From positions 64,001 through 128,000 of the IMG/VR virus record IMGVR_UViG_3300043105_000102: a stretch of 64,000 nucleotides of DNA; one strand, given 5' to 3'. The notes beneath the pieces were generated by a model. It did not search any database, had not been told where the DNA came from, and was given only the letters and a program-made list of their open reading frames with translations. Positions 1,861 to 21,490 of this stretch are shown piece after piece. The translations under genes and the position numbers were made by a program. How positions within the stretch are numbered: position 1 is the stretch's first letter; each line of letters starts with the position of its first letter. The DNA is from a virus. Taxonomy: Duplodnaviria > Caudoviricetes.

Positions 1861-3382
1861 TTCTTACTAATAAGCAAGAAGAAGGTTTGAAGATTATTGT
1901 AGCCAGATACAAAGCAGGAGAAAAATATACTGTTGTATCTGGCTACGCTTAAAAGCTGGTGTCGGTAAAAGCGTTTTAGTTAGATTTGCTGTTGAAGCTT
2001 TGGGGGTGCCAGAAGATACAGTAGCTTATGCTACATATACGGGCAAGGCCGCCGAAGTTTTACGCAAAAAGGGTAATAAGGGGGCTATCACACTTCATAA
2101 GCTTCTATATAACTGCTATCCTCGTAAAGATGGCGGATTTTATAGAGAACCTAAAAAATATTTGGACTATAAAGTTGTTGTTGCTGACGAGTGTAGTATG
2201 ATCCCTAAGACTATGGTAGACCTTCTTTTGAAGCATAATGTTTATGTATTATTCTTAGGTGACCCGTTTTAAAGCACTGGGACGGGCTAAAATAATCTAA
2301 TTGCGGGAACCTCCTGAGAGTTCACTCTACTAACTTATTATAGTGATATGAATAAGGGCAAAGGGTAATGCCGGAGATTTAAGTAAAAACGAGTGAAATT
2401 GGACAATCCGCAGCTAAGTTTCTAAAAGGTTTTAGAAAAAAGTTCAACGACTATCGAAAAGTATTTAATTACTGAGTAGAGTACACTGCAAGTTTATGGC
2501 AGTGGAAATGGTTATCCTAGAAGATATAGTCTGCTCTCACGAGAAATTGTGAGCTTGGATATTCCAAGAGATAAGGTTTGCGCCCTTATCTAAACAGGGA
2601 GGCAGCTCCCACCAATAAATAAAGATGAAGCAAATGACCTTCTAGAGCATCCTCATATCTTTCTTGATGAAGTATTGCGCCAAGCTGCTGACTCAGAAAT
2701 TATTCGAATGACTATGAAAATCCGTAACAATGAGCCTATTCCTTATTTCAAAGGAACTGATGTTATGGTAATTCCAAAAGCAGAGTTAGTAAACTCTTGT
2801 TATACTTGGGCCGATCAAGTATTGGTCGCCACGAATAGGACTAGAAAATCTATCAACACTCAAGTTAGAAAGATGAAGGGACTCAGTGGGTTGCCGCAAG
2901 ATGGAGACAAGATTATCTGTTTGTCAAACTATTGGGACGATATTTCTATGACCGGAGATGCCCTAGTAAATGGCACTACTGGAACTGTACGCAACCCGGT
3001 AGGAAGAGTAAAGAAGGTTCCTTATTTCTTTAATATTCCCGAAAATTCCATTCATAGCATCCAATTCGACTTTGAAACAGAAGAAGGCTCTTGTTTCAGT
3101 GGCATTGAAATGGATGAAAAATTAATTCAAACTGGAAGAAAGGCTGTTGAAGATTATAGTGTTGCTTATCGTTTGAAAAGCTACGAAAAGAAAACCGGAG
3201 AAGAGTTTATTCCCAAAGAGTTTGACTATGGGTATGCTATTACGACTCATAAAGCCCAAGGTAGTTCTTGGCCAAAAGTACTAGTAATAGAAGAGCATTT
3301 TCCAACTATTCAAGAGGAACACGCCCGCCATTTGTATACTAGCTGTACAAGAGCTTCTTCTCGGTTAGTTTTGGTACGTTAA
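1857..3382 (+). CDS. SF1B RecD/Dda-like helicase, discontinuous: 1857-1949 + 1958-2269 + 2603-3382 (394 aa)
   Basis: TTG start after GGAGG. Joining the segments restores Walker A GYAGVGKS, Walker B VVADECSMI, GDPF|QLPP, RQA, YAITTHKAQGS and LYTSCTRA. Confidence 0.85.
1899..1957 (+). other. 14-bp hairpin + GCT-TAA-AA-GCT 8-nt coding gap (candidate translational bypass element)
   Basis: GTAGCCAGATACAA (1899-1912) / TTGTATCTGGCTAC (1933-1946), then GCT, TAA, AA, GCT, then GGT GTC GGT AAA AGC in a different frame. Confidence 0.6.
2270..2602 (+). mobile_element. Group I intron (333 nt, no ORF) in helicase
   Basis: Core elements AATTGCGGGAA, AATCCGCAGC, GTTCAACGACTA, AAGATATAGTC. P1 CCCGTTT/GGACGGG, P10 CTG/CAG; ends in G; restores GDPF|QLPP. 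Confidence 0.92.
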
Positions 3383-3948
3383 TGAATTTAGTAACAATTG
3401 ATTTCGACATAATTATGGCGCCTAGCATTGAAAGTTATAATAATCAAGTTTCTACTAGTCGGCCAATAGAAAAGATAAAAGAAGATTTTCCTTTTCTTCC
3501 AGAGTTTCCGGCTGATTTGTATATCTATGAGTATCTTACGAGATATATTTTAAGTGTTGCTAAACAGAATAAGAAAATATATTTTATTGACGACCATAGT
3601 GAAGTAGTTCAATTTTTTGAGACGCCCCCTTATAGCCTGTATAATATAGACCACCATCATGATATAGGCTATAATTGGGGAGCTTCACGTGATTGCGGCA
3701 ATTGGGTAAGATTTCTTTGGAAAGAAGGAAAAATTACTTCTTACACTTGGATAAACGATGAAAATTCTCAAAAAGCGCCAAAAAGAATCCAAAAGTACTT
3801 AACAGAAGAAAAGAACATTAGAGAGACTAATTTAGAATTATTAGCGCCAGAAACAGATGTTTTGGTATTATGTGCCTCTTATGAATGGGTGCCGCCCCTG
3901 TACCATCCTTTATTTTTGGCGTGGAAAACCATGATTGAATTTATCTAA
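3382..3948 (+). CDS. UPF0489/arginase-deacetylase-fold-like hypothetical protein
   Basis: TIDFD, DDH, NIDHHHDI and DCGNWV motifs; translationally coupled (TAATG) to the helicase. Confidence 0.55.
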   Translation: MNLVTIDFDIIMAPSIESYNNQVSTSRPIEKIKEDFPFLPEFPADLYIYEYLTRYILSVAKQNKKIYFIDDHSEVVQFFETPPYSLYNIDHHHDIGYNWGASRDCGNWVRFLWKEGKITSYTWINDENSQKAPKRIQKYLTEEKNIRETNLELLAPETDVLVLCASYEWVPPLYHPLFLAWKTMIEFI

Positions 3949-3963: not shown

Positions 3964-3990
3964 AGTAATAGTAAAGGGGATGATTAACAC

Positions 3991-4037
3991 ATTATGAAGA
4001 TACGAAACTACCCCGGTAGCCTTCATAATCACTAGAT
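3991..4037 (+). other. Hairpin + CAC-TAG-AT 5-nt coding gap (candidate translational bypass element)
   Basis: ATTATGAAG (3991-3999) / CTTCATAAT (4021-4029) with inner CTAC/GTAG stem, then CAC, TAG, AT, then ACT GAT TAT AGT in the frame of the 4053 ORF. Confidence 0.55.
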
Positions 4038-7000
4038 ACTGATTATAGTAATTTGCGACTTCGTGACTCTATTAACCGATATGATAAGCTTATTGATTAT
4101 GCTATTGAGTTAGGCCACGAAGTTATTGCTTTTACAGAGCATGAATCAGTTTCTAATGCGGTAAAAATCCAAAAGTATTACAAGAAGATTAAGTCCGACC
4201 ATCCCGATTTTAAAGTAATTCTGGGTAATGAGATTTATCTATGCCGAAATGGATTAAATAATGAAAATTTTGTTTCGGGAGAAGATAGATATTGGCACTT
4301 TATACTTTTGGCGAAAGATGCTATTGGCCATCAGCAAATAAGAGAAATTTCTACTAGAGCGTGGAAGCGTTCCTATAAGGCTAGGGGAATGCGGCGAGTC
4401 CCCACTTATTATCAAGATCTTGAAGAAATAATTGGGGCTAATCCCGGCCATGTTATTGGGTCTAGTAGTTGCCTTGGCGGCTATTTACCTTTTTTAATTC
4501 TTAAATATAGAGATAGCAGCAGCGACCAACTCTTATGGCTAGAAAGAATTAACCAATGGACTAATAGTATAGAACAGATTTTCGGAAAAGGAAACTTCTT
4601 TTTAGAGCTTCAGCCCTCAGAATCAAAGGAACAAACTTATGTAAATGAGTTTTTGGTTTCTTTTTCCTCTCAGGCAAATATTCCATATATTATCACAACG
4701 GATTGAAAAATAATGCTTATGAAGATTATTAAAGGAATAGAAGGAGGTGAAAAAATGCGTAGTTTAAAGTCTTTTTCGGCAGAAGAAAAACAGCAAATTT
4801 TGAACGATAAAAGAGAAAACCCATTCAAAAGATATTAGATAAAATCTATAGTAACGTACCCTTTTTTGCTTAAAGCGAAAATACATAAGCATTATAAATG
4901 ACAGTCGAGTTAAGCTGTGAAGCTTAATGTTAATCCCCGCTAACCCAGATTGCAATGGGGTGTGAGCCAATGGCTTGCTAACGGTTGAACTCCTGCAAAG
5001 GACAATCCCGTGCTAAATTACTGTAAAGTATAAATGTGTAACGACTAGTTCGGAGGAACGTAGAATGGAGATGCTACCATTCGAAAGACGGGGCATCTGT
5101 TTGAAGCAGCAGATGAAAATATAGTCTATTCTTTATAGCAATATAAAGTATTAAAGAGTCATTATGCTAGAAGGGAAGATAGACCAATTCATAAGGCCTA
5201 TTTGAATGCAGAAGATGGCGATAGAGAAGTTGATTCTTTTTATGCAACGACTTATATGATGGATACAGAGGAACTAGAGAGCCATTTAAGCTTAACAGAC
5301 GAACAACTAGAAATAGCTTATCAGAATATTAGGAAAATAAAAGAAATGTGTTCTGATTATAGCCTGTTAAAGCCTTTGAAGATTCCTGAGTTAGTTTGGA
5401 AAGAGCCATCTTATTTAATTAGTCCAAGCACTTATTATAAACAGATTCCTTATCTTCAAACCTTTGTTGAATCAGAGTATCGTGGAGATAATCTATTGGC
5501 ACAACATGTTGCAGATAGATTATCTTGGGATACAACACTTCAAAATCAAAAAACTTATGATGCACTAGATGAATGTTTAGAGATGACTTGGAAATCATCT
5601 TTAGTCAATAAAACACATTGGAGTGCCTACTATTTAAATCTACAAAAAATAATTGATATTGTCTGGGATGCTGGAAGTCTGGTGGGGCCATCAAGAGGTT
5701 CTGGTACTGGGTTAGTAACTAAGCTCAGTTAAAAATTCGTGAACTATATTGCTCATAGGTGTCTAGTATAATTACTAGGCTAACGGTTCAGAAAGCAGTA
5801 ATGTTATTATGAGTAAGGGAACCTAAGTCTTTAACAAAGATAAGGAAATACCGTGTCAAGTTTGCTGATTATATTAAGCAAAAAGATGTAGAGACTATCG
5901 AAAGGTGTAATAGCTGAGTAGAGTAAAGTGGAAGATGAGCTACCACTTGAAGCGCGAATTACTTATATATTAAGTAAAGAGATAGTCCATGCTATATAGA
6001 AATATATAGTGTTCAGTTGTCTTACTATATGTATTGAATATTATACAGATAAACGCATTGCGTGAAACTACCAAGACAAAAAGTTGGAGATTTCTTAATC
6101 CTAGTCGAGTATCAGTTTTGGATATTGATGTAGATATAGAAGGCTCAAAGCGTGAAAAAGTTTTACAAGCTCTAAGAGATAATTATGGAGAAGATTATGT
6201 AGCTAACGTTATTACTTTTGGCGTTGAAAAGTCCAAATCAGCTATCCTTACTGGTGCAAGAGGACTAGGCATGGACAATAATGACGCACAGTATTTTTCT
6301 TCTTTAATTCCTTCTGACAGAGGTATCACTAGAACTTTACACCAATGTTATTATGGAGATAAAGAAAATGGTTTTGCGCCCATACCTCTATTTGTCAAGG
6401 AAATGGACGAACATCCAGACTTATGGAACGTGGCGCAAAAGATTGAAGGATTGATTTGCCAGATGGGTATTCACGCTGGGGGAGTTATTTTCGTAGATGA
6501 ACCTTTTACCAACTCCACTGGCTTAATGCGGGCGACAGATGGTACAATTATAACAGCTTATGACCTCCATGATTCAGAAGATGTGAGTCAACGAAAGTTA
6601 AGGCTCCTAAATGCTTAATCACTTATCAGTGATGTTATATAGGCTCTTAGAAATAAGGTAAGTAAAAAATACCTATATGGCACCGGGGAAACCTAAGTCA
6701 AAAATGATATGGCAATCCCGGACTAAATTGGGTAGCTTCCAGCTATCCATAAATGTCTATCGACTATCCCTCGGAAGGGGAGTAGAATTACTATTGATAC
6801 GTAATTCAAAACAGCATTCTCTTTAAAAGAGTAAGATATAGTCAGTACCATTGGAAACAATGGAACAATACGCTTATCAAGTACGACCTATTATCGGTTG
6901 AAGGATTTGATAAAATCCATACTTGCTTAGATTTGCTTTGTGATAATGGATTGGTTGAAAGAAAGCCCACATTAAGAGAAACATATGAATCAACTATTGG

Positions 7001-10000
7001 CATTTACAATCTTGAAAGAAAAGATCCTAGAATGTGGAAAATGATTTGGAATCATGAGATCGAATCATTATTCCAAATGGAAAAACAGAGTGGTGTTCAA
7101 GGAATTGCTTTAACAAAGCCTCAAAGTGTAGACGATTTAGCCCACTTAAATTCAGTAATCCGGCTAGTAGCACAAGATAAGGGCGCTGAACAACCACTAA
7201 GTAAATTTGCTCGTTTTAAAAACGATATTACCTTATGGTATAAGGAAATGGAAGATGCCGGATTGACCCAAAAGGAACAAGACCTTTTAAAAGAATATCT
7301 CTCAGGGTCATATGGTATTTGCGAAGCACAAGAACTATTTATGGAGTTAGTTCAAATTCCTGAATGTGGCGGATTTGACTTAAACTGGGCCGACAGGCTA
7401 AGAAAGAGTATTGCTAAGAAAAATCCAGCCGAATTTGAACAATTAACAAAGGAATATTATGCACAAGTTGAAGCCAAAGGACTAAGCCAAAATTTATGTA
7501 AATACGTATGGCAAAATTTGGTCGGGATAAGCCGTGGGTAAAAATTTGCTCCCTGTAATAGAAATATTACTTGAACAATGCCGAGAATTGCTGGAAAGCT
7601 AAGTCGAAAGATATGCCAATCAGCAGCCGAGCCATTTAGCTAATGGAAGGTTCAACGACTATTCAGAAAGAAGTAGGAGAAATCCGAAGTACGGCACATC
7701 GTTATTCTACCATGATTTTAGATTAAAGGAGGTGTAAAAATGGATCAACAACAGATAATTGATTGGTATGTTAAAGATGGATTTTCAATAAATTATATTG
7801 CAAAAAATCTACTACATTGCCGTGCAAGTACTATTAGTAAAATTTTAAAAGAAAATAATATAGTCATTAAAAAAGGCGCTACTAAAAAAGTAAATATTAA
7901 TCAAGAGAAAGAAATTATTGAACTATATACTAAAGAACATTATACGCAAAAAGAATTAGCCGAAAAGTTCCATCGTAGTACTGATACAATTCATAAAATT
8001 CTTATTAAAAATAGTGTAGCTATTATTAGTCAACCCAAGATTAACAAAAATCAAATAGACACTTATTTTGATATAATAGATACAGAAGAAAAAGCATATT
8101 GGCTTGGATTTATTTTCGCTGATGGTAATATTTTTAACAATCAATTAACAATAGAAATTCATGAGCGGGATAGGGAGTTGCTAGAAAGATTTAAAATAGC
8201 GCTAAATTTAAACGGAAAAATTTCTCATAGAGTCAGAAAAAATACTTCTGTATGTTCTGTCAGAGTTGTAAGTAAACATCTATGTGAAACTTTGAGTAAG
8301 TACGGAATAGTACCTAACAAAACTTATGTTACTAAACATTTACCACAAGTTCCTGAAACAATGTTACCACATTTCTTACGAGGATTAATTGATGGTGATG
8401 GTTGGATTAGTACAGACAAATCTGGACATTATCATATTGGGTTTGTTAGTCACTTCCCTTCAGTGTGTGAAGATTTTAAAAGGTATTGCAATATATTAAC
8501 CGATGGAAAATGTAGAGCTGCAATTACACGCAAAGATAAAAATTATTCTGGATATTGTTTTCAAATTCAGAGCAAAGAAGCTACAAAATTGATAGCTACA
8601 ATTTTGTATAAAGACAATACAATTTGTCTTAGTCGAAAGTATCGGAGGGTAGAGCCGTTACTTGACTGAAAAAACGATGAAGATATAGTCTTGGGCGATA
8701 ACCAGTTATGAAAATAACATTCGCTCAGACGGCTTTAATTTGAGTCATACATTAGCATATTCCCTTGTGGCACTCCAAGAGATGAACTTAGCATTTAAGT
8801 ACCCTATTGTTTATTGGAACTGCGCTTGCTTGATAGTTGATAGCGGTAGCGTTGGTTCTGGAACAGATTATAATAAGATAGCTATAGCTATTGGTAAGAT
8901 GCGGAAAGCCAACATTAAAGTTAGTTTGCCTGATATAAACCAATCAGACTTTGGATTCAAACCCGATGAAAAGAATAATAGAATCCTGTGCGGACTTAAG
9001 AGTCTGGCAAATGTTGGCGATGAAGTAGTCATAAAAACTATTGACAACCGTCCTTATGTATCTCCAAAAGACTATTTGGATAAAGTTCATCCTAATAAGC
9101 AAGCTATGATTTCCTTGATTAAAGGAGGGGCTTTTGATTCTCTTATGGATAGAAAGCTTTGCATGGCTTGGTATATTTGGGAAACTTGTAATAAAAAGAG
9201 TAAAATTAACCTACAGAATATGTCGGGATTGATTAGATACAATCTTCTTCCCGAAGAAACAGAAGAACAAGTCATGGCGCGCCGAGTTTATGAGTTTAAT
9301 AGATATTTGAAAAGTAGCTTTAAGCAAGGTGACAAATATATATTAACCAATCGGGCTATTAGCTTTTTGAACGAACTGGGCATAGAACCAAGTTTTGATT
9401 CTGGACTTTATTTACCGATTAAAAAATGGGAAAAGGTCTATCAAAAATGGATGGACGTATTTAGAGAGTGGATGGCCGCCAACCACGATAAAATACTCCA
9501 AAAAGTAAATGATAATGTTTTCCGTGAAGATTGGGAGAAGTATGCTCTTGGTAATTATTCTAGTTGGGAAATGCAATCTTTGTGTTTCTATTATCATGAA
9601 CACGAACTCGCCCATGTTAATAATAATCTTTATGGCTTCGCTGACTTCTCTAAGCTTCCAGAAGAACCAGAAATTGTAAAGACCTTTGGGAGCGGTGGAA
9701 AAATTTTCCAGTTGCATACGATTTGCGGCACTTGTATTGCAAAAGACAAAAACAAGAGTACTGTTAGCTTATTAACTACAACCGGAGTAGTTAATATTAA
9801 GTTCAGAAAAGAATACTTCTCTATTTTTGATAAACGTATCTCAGAAATTGGCGCCGATGGTACTAAACATTGTATTGAAGAATCTTGGTTTAGTAGAGGT
9901 AGTATGATAGCGGTTCAAGGCATTCGTTCGGGAGATAATTTTGTACCAAAGAAATATAAAAGTTCAAATTCCCATGAGCTATATAAGATTGATAAAGTTT

Positions 10001-10068
10001 ATCCTGATGGCCGACTTGCTTTGCGCCATGATAGATATAAAGGAGAGGAGTCTGAAAGTAATGACTAA
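3994..10068 (+). CDS. dnaE: DNA polymerase III alpha subunit (DnaE-type), discontinuous: 3994-4032 + 4038-4703 + 5157-5712 + 6017-6588 + 6873-7539 + 8729-10068 (1279 aa)
   Basis: Joined sequence restores PHP LHNHTDYS, FTEH, GNEIY, TTD|SHY, GPSRGSGTGF, LDIDVD, GIHAGG, S|LIKYDLL, GYGFNLSH, LPDINQS and a C-terminal OB fold. Confidence 0.92.
4704..5156 (+). mobile_element. Group I intron dnaE-I1 (453 nt) with an enlarged P1 loop
   Basis: GCTAACGG, AATCCCGTGC, GTAACGACTA, AAATATAGTC core. P10 AATGAC/GTCATT; restores TTD|SHY. Confidence 0.9.
4755..4838 (+). pseudogene. Probable homing-endonuclease remnant (27 aa) inside dnaE-I1
   Basis: Strong RBS AAGGAGGTGA + ATG; MRSLKSFSAEEKQQILNDKRENPFKRY*; enclosed by a 12-bp stem (4710-4721 / 4884-4895). 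Confidence 0.55.
5713..6016 (+). mobile_element. Group I intron dnaE-I2 (304 nt, no ORF)
   Basis: P1 ACTGGGT/GCTCAGT; GCTAACGG, AATACCGTG, GTAGAGACTA, GAGATAGTC; the GGG T|TT junction gives GSGTGFVLLYVL. Confidence 0.9.
6589..6872 (+). mobile_element. Group I intron dnaE-I3 (284 nt, no ORF)
   Basis: P1 GAGT/GCTC, P10 TAAG/CTTA; CCGGGGAA, AATCCCGG, TCGACTA, AAGATATAGTC; restores EDVS|LIKYDLL. Confidence 0.9.
7540..8728 (+). mobile_element. Group I intron dnaE-I4 (1189 nt) with a LAGLIDADG ORF in the P8 loop
   Basis: AATTGCTGGAAA, AATCAGCAGC, GTTCAACGACTA, AAGATATAGTC; P8 CATCGTT/AACGATG flanks the ORF; GGG T|AC gives RGYGFNLSH. Confidence 0.92.
7740..8669 (+). CDS. Intron-encoded double-motif LAGLIDADG homing endonuclease with N-terminal HTH-like repeats
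   Basis: WLGFIFADG and FLRGLIDGDG motifs; RBS GGAGGTG. Confidence 0.9.
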   Translation: MDQQQIIDWYVKDGFSINYIAKNLLHCRASTISKILKENNIVIKKGATKKVNINQEKEIIELYTKEHYTQKELAEKFHRSTDTIHKILIKNSVAIISQPKINKNQIDTYFDIIDTEEKAYWLGFIFADGNIFNNQLTIEIHERDRELLERFKIALNLNGKISHRVRKNTSVCSVRVVSKHLCETLSKYGIVPNKTYVTKHLPQVPETMLPHFLRGLIDGDGWISTDKSGHYHIGFVSHFPSVCEDFKRYCNILTDGKCRAAITRKDKNYSGYCFQIQSKEATKLIATILYKDNTICLSRKYRRVEPLLD

Positions 10069-19694: not shown

Positions 19695-21490
19695 TTATCC
19701 GTTGCACCCAAAAGATAGAGGATAACCAGTATAAGGATTGGCTACGGGGTATGCAGGAACGGGGCAGGGCTTAAGCTCATTCACCAGATAAGCATTCTGA
19801 GCTTGCTGAGAAATCTGGAAATTAGCAGTCTGCAATTGACTATCCTTGGCGGCCAGACGATCACGCAAGTCTTGCATTGTGTTAGCATTGATTAAAGCTC
19901 TAGTTTGTTCGGCTTCATTGTGAATAGCGGCAGTAATATCGCAAGTATTACGGTAATTCTCTGCTCTAACGCTATCTATATTGCGGTTTGTGTCACCAAT
20001 TTGTTATCTTATAGGCTCTTTATCCTATAACTCATATAGTTTCCTATATGTTCAGACTATATCTTCTTCCCTAATTATTATTAGGGAGTTCGGCACTCGT
20101 GTTGGTATTATTGTTTGTCATAACTCAACCATTAGTCGTTGAACCTTCTAATTACTTTTACTGACTTTCATTAGCTTGGCTGCTGATTAGCATACTTACA
20201 AATGTAAACTTAGCTTTCCAGCAATTCACCGAATTATTTTTCTAATAGTTACCTATTAGGCTGCCATGATTGTTTAGCAGCAAGACTGCATCGCATAACG
20301 GCTATCCGCAATATTAGAGTTTACAGTATCGAAGCCTTGAGAGACAGCACTAAATCCTGTGCATAAATCACGCTGTAAACTGCCAAAGTTGTTCAGGAGA
20401 GTAGTGTTGTTGGAATAAAATCCATCACACAAACCTTGCTGAATGCCACGAACGCCATTTTCAACTTGCTGGAAGTTCATGTCTTGGCAAAGCTCTCCTC
20501 TGGTCAGGGCGCCTTGAGTTGAAGCATTGTTATTGCCCCAACCATTTCCTCCCCATCCGCCGCCCATAAAGACGAACAGGAAAAGTATAATTATCCCATT
20601 GCTGTTATCCTACTGGCTTTTTGTCCAGTAGCTCTTATAGTTTATAGTTCCTATAAGTTCAGCGCACCTTTTCTACTCCAATATTAGAGTAGTCGCGGCC
20701 TCTTGGAAAAACTAAATAGTTCTGAGTTATTAAAAAACTCTGCTTTATATCTATTGCAGAAATGAAAAAGTATAATTATGTACTTTACTGCGGCTGCTGT
20801 TTAAAACTCTAGTAATAGCACGTTTGTTAATGTTTAAAAGCGCACTAGCTTCAGAAGTACTCATAAAAACAAATTTTTCACCTGTAGTTAAATTTGTTGC
20901 TAAAATCGGTTTACTCTTTATCTGGTCTTTTTCTTTTGTCCATTCAAGATTTTCGACTTTATTGTTAAGTGGATTTCCATCTTTGTGCTTAACATAAGGG
21001 AGAATATTTGGATTATCAAGAAAATATAAGGCCACAAGTCGATGGATTCTAAAAGTCTTTTTAAGCCCATCTTGGCAAAAGGTATACGTTAAATAACCTT
21101 CGTTGTTCATGTGCGGTTCCAAAATTTTCCCATTTTTAACATTTTTGATATTACCACAGTTTGAAACAGCATAATTATTGAACGCATCAATAATTATATA
21201 CTTTTCCATTTCGTATACTCCTTTAATTGACTTTATATAGTAGTCTTAAAGGACTACAACATATTCAGTATGTCTGCGCGTTGCCCCTGACTGTAGTTCT
21301 TACAGCCTTCGGTTCTGATTCCCATCTCAGGGTTCCAGCTTAATTCCGCGATTATTCGATACAAGTTACCTTGTAAAGTGGCAAATATTTATACTTACCA
21401 AGCTCCCATGCCATCGCCAAATCCCTCACGATTGGCACCAGAAGCAGTTGCAATGTCGGCTAAAGAATAGCCACTGTTTTGATTGAACAT
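19695..21490 (-). CDS. Membrane-anchored Gly-rich/coiled-coil protein (module gene 3), spliced: 21490-21397 + 20596-20276 + 19996-19695 (238 aa)
   Basis: GGAGG RBS + ATG 21490. Splicing gives MFNQNSGYSLADIA...GAWWIIILFLFVFMGGGWGG...MQSCCCDTNRNID...PCPVPAYPVANPY; total 717 nt in frame. Confidence 0.88.
19997..20275 (-). mobile_element. Group I intron (279 nt, no ORF)
   Basis: On - strand: P1 GCTGCT/GGCAGC, P10 TCAT/GTGA; AATTGCTGGAAA, AATCAGCAGC, GTTCAACGACTA, AAGATATAGTC; T|GT restores CCC. Confidence 0.92.
20597..21396 (-). mobile_element. Group I intron (800 nt) with a NUMOD4-HNH ORF
   Basis: On - strand: P1 TGGT/GCCA; AAGCTGGAA, AATCAGAAC; P7 GCGCA/TGCGC; P3 TCGCGG/CCGCGA; T|GG restores WW. 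Confidence 0.88.
20751..21209 (-). CDS. Intron-encoded NUMOD4/HNH endonuclease, possibly degenerate
   Basis: YAVSNCGNI, GYL, IHRLVA, HKDGNPLNNKVENLEW, C-terminal NUMOD1-like STSEASALL; AAGGAG RBS. Confidence 0.8.
   Translation of the reverse strand: MEKYIIIDAFNNYAVSNCGNIKNVKNGKILEPHMNNEGYLTYTFCQDGLKKTFRIHRLVALYFLDNPNILPYVKHKDGNPLNNKVENLEWTKEKDQIKSKPILATNLTTGEKFVFMSTSEASALLNINKRAITRVLNSSRSKVHNYTFSFLQ

Follow-up and report, generated by a model that had tools for sequence, protein, structure and literature searches.

Natural bypassing, in which a non-coding gap is skipped within one polypeptide, is known in very few systems: gene 60 of phage T4 and its homologues, probably the gene for terminase in Streptomyces phage Hau3, and one yeast mitochondrial lineage. 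In gene 60 the take-off codon is followed by UAG, and a 5' stem-loop lying 9 nucleotides (nt) upstream of take-off is the proposed driver (bioRxiv 10.1101/2024.12.09.627546). Gene 60 bypassing and stop-hops are both characterised by a stop in the A site that adjoins the take-off codon (PMC5009743). A survey of gene 60 calls its cassette unique and gives 20 nt as the shortest gap; the bypass insert of the MobA/gene 60 element protects from the endonuclease and is often still there after the endonuclease has been lost (bioRxiv 10.1101/2022.08.31.505936). The terL gene of Hau3 has two 10-nt frame-disrupting blocks, and the junction peptide was seen by mass spectrometry in E. coli (PMC10732093). 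The stop-hops of Weiss et al. (1987), as cited in PMC5009743, crossed a stop by +5/+6 nt at a low level in synthetic E. coli constructs. The byps of Magnusiomyces capitatus mitochondria are cited there as many short inserts that are corrected in translation. According to that 2016 recoding review, naturally occurring short-distance equivalents of gene 60 had been assumed for a long time, and in-frame stop-hopping had no known natural example (PMC5009743). Here we consider a candidate in dnaE, a DNA polymerase gene of an uncultured Caudoviricetes phage. The window, by which we mean the whole stretch of 64,000 nt that was analysed, is bases 64001-128000 of IMG/VR record IMGVR_UViG_3300043105_000102.

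In the window a 5-nt insert, TAGAT, breaks the first motif of the PHP domain after codon 13 of dnaE. We argue from comparison with related phages that ribosomes probably cross this gap by a programmed short translational bypass (a "stop-hop") driven by refolding of a 5' hairpin. In a literature search, neither dnaE nor the P-loop of a helicase turned up as a reported site of bypassing.

The break in the PHP motif of dnaE

All features described here are on the + strand, and positions are those of the window unless the genome is named. An ATG at 3994-3996 opens a 13-codon frame (MKIRNYPGSLHNH, 3994-4032). Its last codon is CAC at 4030-4032, and a TAG stop follows at 4033-4035. The gap (4033-4037) consists of this TAG and the AT at 4036-4037; one relative, L051, has TAAAT at the same place. 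The motif continues from 4038 in another frame with ACT GAT TAT AGT AAT, or TDYSN, and this is the frame of the open reading frame (ORF) that is called from TTG 4053. The initial annotation described this layout, and every element is where it was placed. It also proposed that removing 5 nt restores the PHP motif. Alignment with related N-termini bears this out, since they show M..YPGSLHNH[TS]DYSN unbroken. Uninterrupted relatives as a whole read M..YPGSLHNH[TS]xYSN without a break, and the first four relatives found, which are 44-69% identical, have [ML]..GSLHNH[ST]DYSN. Since the relatives read through the motif, TAGAT is a true 5-nt insertion relative to the family. Since the leader matches the uninterrupted N-termini (YPGSLHNH), it is the true N-terminus of dnaE, and the gene starts at ATG 3994. 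The joined product reads ..YPGSLHNHTDYSNLRLRD, collinear with the uninterrupted relatives.

The rest of exon 1 (4038-4703, with ACT 4038 as the resume codon) encodes the PHP domain. The TTG-4053 ORF (4029-4703) matches PF02811 in Pfam with an E value of 3.5e-20. The PHP metal ligands H30, E60, H82 and C140 are invariant in 26 homologues, and the HxH of the domain is present in the polymerase only if the 13-codon leader is joined on. This is the sole DNA polymerase gene in the complete 155.9-kb genome, where a family A or family B polymerase was looked for and none was found.

One can imagine that the insert is an assembly error, or that the gene is inactive and codes for a decaying or dispensable polymerase. 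The genome is metagenome-assembled, and some phages are able to use host polymerases. However, the insert is unchanged in five independent assemblies from two pipelines (Logan SRR11793810, SRR11793811 and SRR11792607; JGI 3300035498 and 3300043007). Two of the five represent a strain that is 99.3-99.6% identical, with 8-9 single-nucleotide polymorphisms in the flanks and zero between 3985 and 4060. This rules out an assembly artefact and shows that the phage persists with the insert in place; the initial annotation had named a sequencing artefact beforehand as something that would refute its reading. The exons 3' of the gap are all intact with their catalytic residues conserved, and the same design with a co-occurring hairpin is found in dozens of phages. 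Error or inactivity is thus highly improbable. Further contigs on record carry the 217-amino-acid gene call that starts at TTG 4053.

Gaps in related dnaE and helicase genes

A profile search of IMG/VR matched 450 dnaE loci overall, and 80 loci that are 60-70% identical in exon 1 were compared (L numbers denote single loci). GSLHNH[TS]xYSN is interrupted in 23 of the 80 and uninterrupted in the other 57. There are 16 different gap sequences including that of the window. They are 4-12 nt long, follow four take-off codons and occur in all three frame relations. In class a take-off is after the second His (CAY), and the gaps are TAGAT (5 nt, the window) with GAT as landing triplet, TAAAT (5 nt, L051) with AAT, and TAGCTAT (7 nt, L085) and TAGTGGAGTAT (11 nt, L013) with TAT. 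In class b it is after Asn (AAY). TAGC (4 nt) and TAGGGAGC (8 nt) land on AGC, whose central G can form a G-U pair with the Asn anticodon, and TAAAC (5 nt), TGAAC (5 nt) and TAGGGTGAAC (10 nt) land on AAC. In class c it is after the first His (CAT), with TAGTGCAA, TGACCCAA and TAGTTCAA (8 nt each) landing on CAA and TAGTTTATTCAT (12 nt, in frame) on CAT. In class d it is after Ser (TCT), and TAGTCT (6 nt, in frame), TAGTTCT (7 nt) and TAGCGAAATCT (11 nt) all land on TCT. Several of the longer gaps have a Shine-Dalgarno-like GGAG or GGTG a few bases 5' of the landing triplet (L013, L021 and L080 in dnaE; L156 and L165 in the helicase described below), which recalls the mini-Shine-Dalgarno of gene 60 located 6 nt before its landing site.

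Could the ribosome simply shift frame? A -1 frameshift at CAC-TAG would suit the window (5 = -1 mod 3) and yield HNH-LD-TDYS with two extra residues. An A-site stop and upstream structure are also classic frameshift stimulators, and the -1 frame is open from 4029. However, there is no slippery heptamer (no X XXY YYZ at 4024-4035), and tRNA-His is unable to re-pair on TCA. Frameshifting or read-through would insert 1-4 residues into a metal-binding motif whose HxH-[TS]-x-Y-S spacing is invariant in all 57 uninterrupted loci. The gaps of relatives also count against it. They span all three frame relations, in-frame gaps of 6 and 12 nt among them, so no single +1 or -1 shift serves them all. We consider a frameshift unlikely.

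The mini-ORFs of all interrupted alleles encode ..PGSLH(N)(H) with differing codons. Since this leader peptide is conserved and the downstream ligands are invariant, the two parts of dnaE are selected to work together. This bears on another scenario, where ribosomes terminate at TAG 4033 and restart at TTG 4053, or where two separate polypeptides are made. The polymerase would then be without its first two PHP histidines. TTG 4053 sits 18 nt past the stop, and it is the start chosen by gene callers for the 217-amino-acid protein. However, it has no ribosome-binding site before it, as the initial annotation had remarked, and a leader kept as protein with varying codons in every interrupted allele counts against a restart. 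So do L021, L043, L063 and L034, where no ATG, GTG or TTG occurs in frame until 89-92 codons past the gap, which means that re-initiation is not the general answer. In the helicase a restart would delete the P-loop. It is unlikely that initiation at TTG 4053 solves the problem in general, and we give termination and restart little credence in the window itself.

The helicase gene of the window has a sister site. TTG 1857 opens a frame that reads ...VVSGYA to GCT (1947-1949), followed by TAA AA GCT and then by GGT GTC GGT AAA AGC. Dropping 8 nt restores the Walker A sequence SGYAGVGKS as found in relatives. The 8-nt gap is TAAAAGCT (1950-1957) with GCT as landing triplet, and GGT 1958 is the resume codon. 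A 14-base-pair (bp) hairpin (1899-1912 with 1933-1946) stands in front of the take-off codon, with a folding energy of -25.9 kcal/mol and a z score of -8.2. The initial annotation ranked the dnaE site as the weaker of the two. We agree, since the geometry is the same and the helicase has both a stronger hairpin and a matched landing triplet. Helicase loci matched in the search number 244 overall. Among the 80 related ones examined, 20 are interrupted after the same Ala codon. There are 11 gap types of 5-8 nt, the window's included, and five of them end in GCN. The 5' arm of the hairpin needs the Ala codon GCC; uninterrupted relatives have Glu, Asp, Thr or Ser there.

All 27 gap types, 16 in dnaE and 11 in the helicase, start with TAG, TAA or TGA in the upstream frame. 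The chance expectation for this is (3/64)^27. In 12 of the 27 the landing triplet is synonymous with the take-off codon (TCT>TCT, AAY>AAC, CAT>CAT, GCY>GCN), for which the binomial tail is 2.5e-8 at p = 4/64, computed without regard to shared ancestry. Some other landing triplets pair by G-U wobble, such as AGC for Asn and TAT for His. In the window dnaE the sense codon CAC is followed at once by TAG, as in gene 60-type bypass. Its landing triplet GAT is not cognate to the take-off codon, and matches the His anticodon at two of three positions. We argue that the stop-first rule points to the ribosome, since neither a DNA footprint nor RNA excision has any need of a stop.

The removal or skipping of the 5 nt at the RNA level is another scenario. 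It could involve a micro-intron, editing or polymerase realignment, and might be guided by a stem. The genome is rich in self-splicing introns, and a stem of ATAATCA (4025-4031) with TGATTAT (4040-4046) is able to loop out the insert. The initial annotation presented this stem as a second structure that excludes the first hairpin and is compatible with excision. The pairing does exist in the sequence. However, at -3.9 kcal/mol and a z score of -0.95 it is no better than shuffles (33 of 200 were as good), and in class a only one other allele (L051) has it; L013 and L085 do not. It is probably not functional, and nothing favours excision. The gap site in dnaE has no Rfam match, 5 nt are too short for a ribozyme core, and there is no known ribozyme or enzyme that removes 4-12 nt. 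RNA excision would also leave the 27 stop-led gaps and the 12 synonymous ends unexplained. It is an improbable scenario. An alternative genetic code was considered too, and was rejected, since each of the three stop codons is in use and the reading frame changes.

The hairpin and the proposed hop

The initial annotation placed a hairpin just before CAC that covers the start codon, and this holds as an exact 9-bp inverted repeat. The 5' arm is ATTATGAAG (3991-3999), which includes the start codon. The 3' arm is CTTCATAAT (4021-4029, the codons for L-H-N), and it ends one base before CAC. The folding energy is -9.3 kcal/mol with a z score of -3.8, and 1 of 200 shuffles is as good. Hairpins were compared by the length of the contiguous stem; a version with fixed 11-nt arms told the controls apart from classes b and c but was a poor fit for class a. 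A contiguous stem of 7-10 bp (Watson-Crick or G-U) is present in every one of the 24 interrupted dnaE alleles, and the end of its 3' arm is never more than 2 nt away from where the take-off codon begins. The arm ends 0-1 nt before this codon in 21 alleles and 2 nt before it in one, and in L071 it enters the codon by 2 nt. A stem of at least 8 bp is found in 23 of the 24 interrupted alleles versus 11 of 57 uninterrupted loci at any of four equivalent positions (4, 6, 2 and 7 loci at each); the Fisher value of 6e-11 ignores shared ancestry. In the helicase there are such stems in 21 of 21 interrupted versus 5 of 55 uninterrupted loci, with a Fisher value of 2e-14 that likewise ignores it. Nearly all gaps in both genes are directly behind a hairpin of 7-17 bp.

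From class to class the stem ends at a different place, in step with the take-off codon. The class a stem is ATTATGAAGA with TCTTCATAAT, ending before CAY, and the class b stem is ATGAAGACT with AGTCTTCAT, ending before AAY. The class c stem is ATGAAAACTAC with GTAGTTTACAT, where a change of the Leu codon from CTT to TTA is matched by AAG to AAA. The class d stem is AATCAGTAT with ATACTGATT. Classes a to c have the start codon inside the 5' arm of the hairpin.

We propose the following route. Ribosomes would start at ATG 3994 and translate 13 codons. The peptidyl-tRNA-His on CAC in the P site would then meet TAG in the A site without termination. It would detach, the mRNA would slide by 5 nt, and the tRNA would re-pair imperfectly on GAT (4035-4037). 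Decoding would restart at ACT 4038, and the product would be one polymerase with an intact HxH-T-x-Y-S motif. The junction peptide is predicted to be ...SLHNHTDYSNLR, without the extra Leu-Asp, and its tryptic form NYPGSLHNHTDYSNLR. The hairpin would be the driver. At take-off its 3' arm (-1 to -9) would occupy the E site and the exit path while the 5' arm is already outside the ribosome, and refolding would pull the mRNA through the exit side. This could withdraw up to about 9-14 nt, the same range as the gap lengths of 4-12 nt. A nascent-peptide signal of the gene 60 type is impossible here since the nascent chain has only 13 residues. With the start codon in the 5' arm, as in classes a to c, we speculate that folding also delays the following ribosome. 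Work cited in bioRxiv 10.1101/2024.12.09.627546 reports that gene 60 bypassing is weakened by trailing ribosomes.

Several points weigh against this proposal. The evidence for the phage and its relatives is wholly comparative. It establishes the anatomy, its presence in independent assemblies, and its recurrence and co-variation among relatives; the hop and its efficiency, what the hairpin does and the tie to endonuclease immunity are inferred from it. The dnaE hairpin of the window is modest and the GAT landing imperfect. The hairpin and landing statistics ignore the kinship of alleles, and they draw on 16 distinct gap types in dnaE and 11 in the helicase. The stop-hops known to occur spontaneously in E. 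coli have a low efficiency (PMC5009743), and the yield here could be low. There is no homing endonuclease gene beside dnaE in the window, where neither Pfam nor PHROG gave a match for the upstream ORF (3382-3948). Nor is there a gap in cultured relatives: the best cultured match, Enterocloster phage PMBT24, was the one inspected, and it is uninterrupted. In tblastn searches the cultured relatives have at most 45% identity and no bench-ready pair of host and phage was found; blastn of the region against 50,697 phage records gave no match. The dnaE signals of the window are at the weak end of the family. Efficiency may be modest because the hairpin has 9 bp and the landing triplet matches at two of three positions. 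Nevertheless, a hop from CAC over TAG to ACT with landing on GAT, as the initial annotation envisaged, is strongly supported by the comparative data.

Mobile cassettes and known systems

L016 has a gap and L018 does not. Their promoters are the same, as is everything from CAT ACT on, but the ribosome-binding site, the start, the first ~12 codons and the gap differ throughout. Exon 1 is nearly the same in L051 and L055, and their gap classes are different. On a quick maximum likelihood tree the state of interruption is scattered, with at least 9 changes. Genes of the GIY-YIG type (PF01541) are directly 5' of dnaE in 4 of the 23 interrupted loci (L034, L069, L052 and L085) versus 0 of the 57 uninterrupted ones, with a hypergeometric estimate of ~0.006. 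In L023 there is a weak match to HNH, under the Pfam cut-off. There is no endonuclease gene beside the start of the window helicase either. Gap and leader thus behave as a mobile cassette, judging from these sequences, and it probably persists by disrupting the target of a homing endonuclease in a conserved motif. The gap would destroy the target while ribosomes hop across it. Beyond this phage, we lean slightly towards a broader view in which stop-led gaps of 4-12 nt behind hairpins form a widespread mobile class of minimal bypass cassettes. They would have no nascent-peptide signal, would sit in conserved motifs of replication genes, and would spread with endonucleases and outlive them.

Other inserts and odd features were seen as well. 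In helicase loci L136, L148 and L161 the Walker A loop that has the short gaps in other alleles carries an intein-like insertion (..YIVTHN, then T), ~100 nt 5' of locus position 601. One conserved P-loop site is host to two kinds of selfish insert. The GIY-YIG gene 5' of the interrupted dnaE in L052 (714-1436) has one in-frame TAG (..LTMI*VNEII..) at a place where the L034 frame stays open. The gene may be a pseudogene, or the TAG may be a site of read-through or of further recoding. A tblastn search with all ORFs of two relatives found many introns in the genome, and the helicase gap was the only further short break; this search is blind within ~15 codons of starts. A signature scan for a stop, an open frame and a stem of at least 9 bp was too noisy to be of use. 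Its best match, at genome position 62505, is an ordinary gene start in a 16-bp hairpin. One of the pairs in this hairpin (genome 62460-62501, window -1540 to -1499) is G-U. A RecJ-like DHH gene has its ribosome-binding site enclosed by the hairpin and its ATG in the 3' arm. It looks like a translational control element rather than a hop site.

Unusual phage tRNAs were considered as hop promoters and rejected. No tRNA-His is encoded, and in the two tRNAs inspected of 12, Ala-GGC and Asn-GTT, the anticodon loop has the normal 7 nt. The 12 tRNA genes are at genome 24060-27659, upstream of the window. They include Ala(GGC), Asn(GTT) and Ser(TGA), which are cognate to take-off codons: GCT/GCC in the helicase, and AAY and TCT in related dnaE genes.

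The source genome is a 155,944-bp record with direct terminal repeats, a CheckV completeness of 100% and a G+C content of 36%. Four large intervening sequences split dnaE into five exons. The later exons are at about 5157-5717, 6019-6612, 6870-7547 and 8722-10056, as found by tblastn with the dnaE ORFs of relatives G001 and G002, and they match the Pfam DNA_pol3_alpha and finger domains. The intervening sequences are presumed to be group I introns. None of them (4704-5156, 5718-6018, 6613-6869, 7548-8721) has an Rfam group I match at the gathering threshold; the only such introns that Rfam recognises in the window are at 2259-2553 and 20033-20285. They may be divergent group I introns. The 99.3-99.6% identical strain (L010, L011) diverges completely from the window after 4827, inside the first of them, which suggests an intron or endonuclease polymorphism within the population. 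A Shine-Dalgarno-like AAGGGGA (3973-3979) is ~14 nt 5' of the dnaE ATG, and its GGGGATG/GGTGATG block aligns in interrupted relatives. This spacing is unusually long. A 5-codon upstream ORF, ATG ATT AAC ACA TTA TGA (3980-3997), overlaps the dnaE start with its TGA (ATGA). The counterpart of its ATG in L051 and L013 is in frame with the dnaE leader.

It is worth considering what follows if the hop is real. Essential phage genes would be systematically truncated by gene callers, and recoding would be tied to the conflict between phages and homing endonucleases. If the broader class of cassettes is real as well, ribosome hopping would be a common phage strategy, and one hairpin with one stop would make up a minimal sliding system.

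T4 gene 60 is like this locus in several ways. Both have a sense take-off codon followed by a stop, both have a non-coding gap that is (here, would be) skipped within one polypeptide, and in both 5' stem-loop refolding is the proposed drive. The gap of gene 60/MobA is also part of a mobile cassette able to travel with a homing endonuclease and outlive it. However, its gap is 50 nt, or 20 nt in the shortest clade, versus 5 nt here and 4-12 nt in relatives. It interrupts a topoisomerase gene, whereas the present gaps are in dnaE and the helicase; no similarity was seen by eye, without an alignment. Its hairpin is 9 nt upstream, and the one here abuts the take-off codon. The window has no significant A-site stem-loop and an unmatched landing codon. 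The peptide signal of gene 60, KKYK, is ~25-30 residues from the P site, a distance that a 13-residue chain does not span.

The E. coli stop-hops, in the form cited by the review, are alike in that the peptidyl-tRNA re-pairs on a nearby similar codon beyond the stop. There the hop is unstimulated and inefficient; here it would be natural, conserved and equipped with a dedicated hairpin. The byps, according to the same citation, share take-off and landing codons that are not always a perfect match. They differ in being mitochondrial, in having an unused codon in the A site, and in seeming independent of mRNA context, with relaxed mitochondrial decoding.

In Hau3, just as we find here, short blocks break an essential phage gene at conserved junctions, a 5' stem-loop is proposed as the stimulator, and the junction is defined by uninterrupted relatives. 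The A-site codon of Hau3 is the rare sense codon UUA, tied to host physiology, rather than a stop. Only three genes with such blocks are known, and no link to endonucleases is reported. The present sites are near the 5' ends of their genes, and their alleles are many, with varied gap lengths and positions. The material consists of dozens of natural alleles of two essential genes, which vary in gap length, frame, take-off codon and landing match. If the hop is real, these alleles would be a minimal natural test bed for the refolding of exiting mRNA as a driver of the ribosome.

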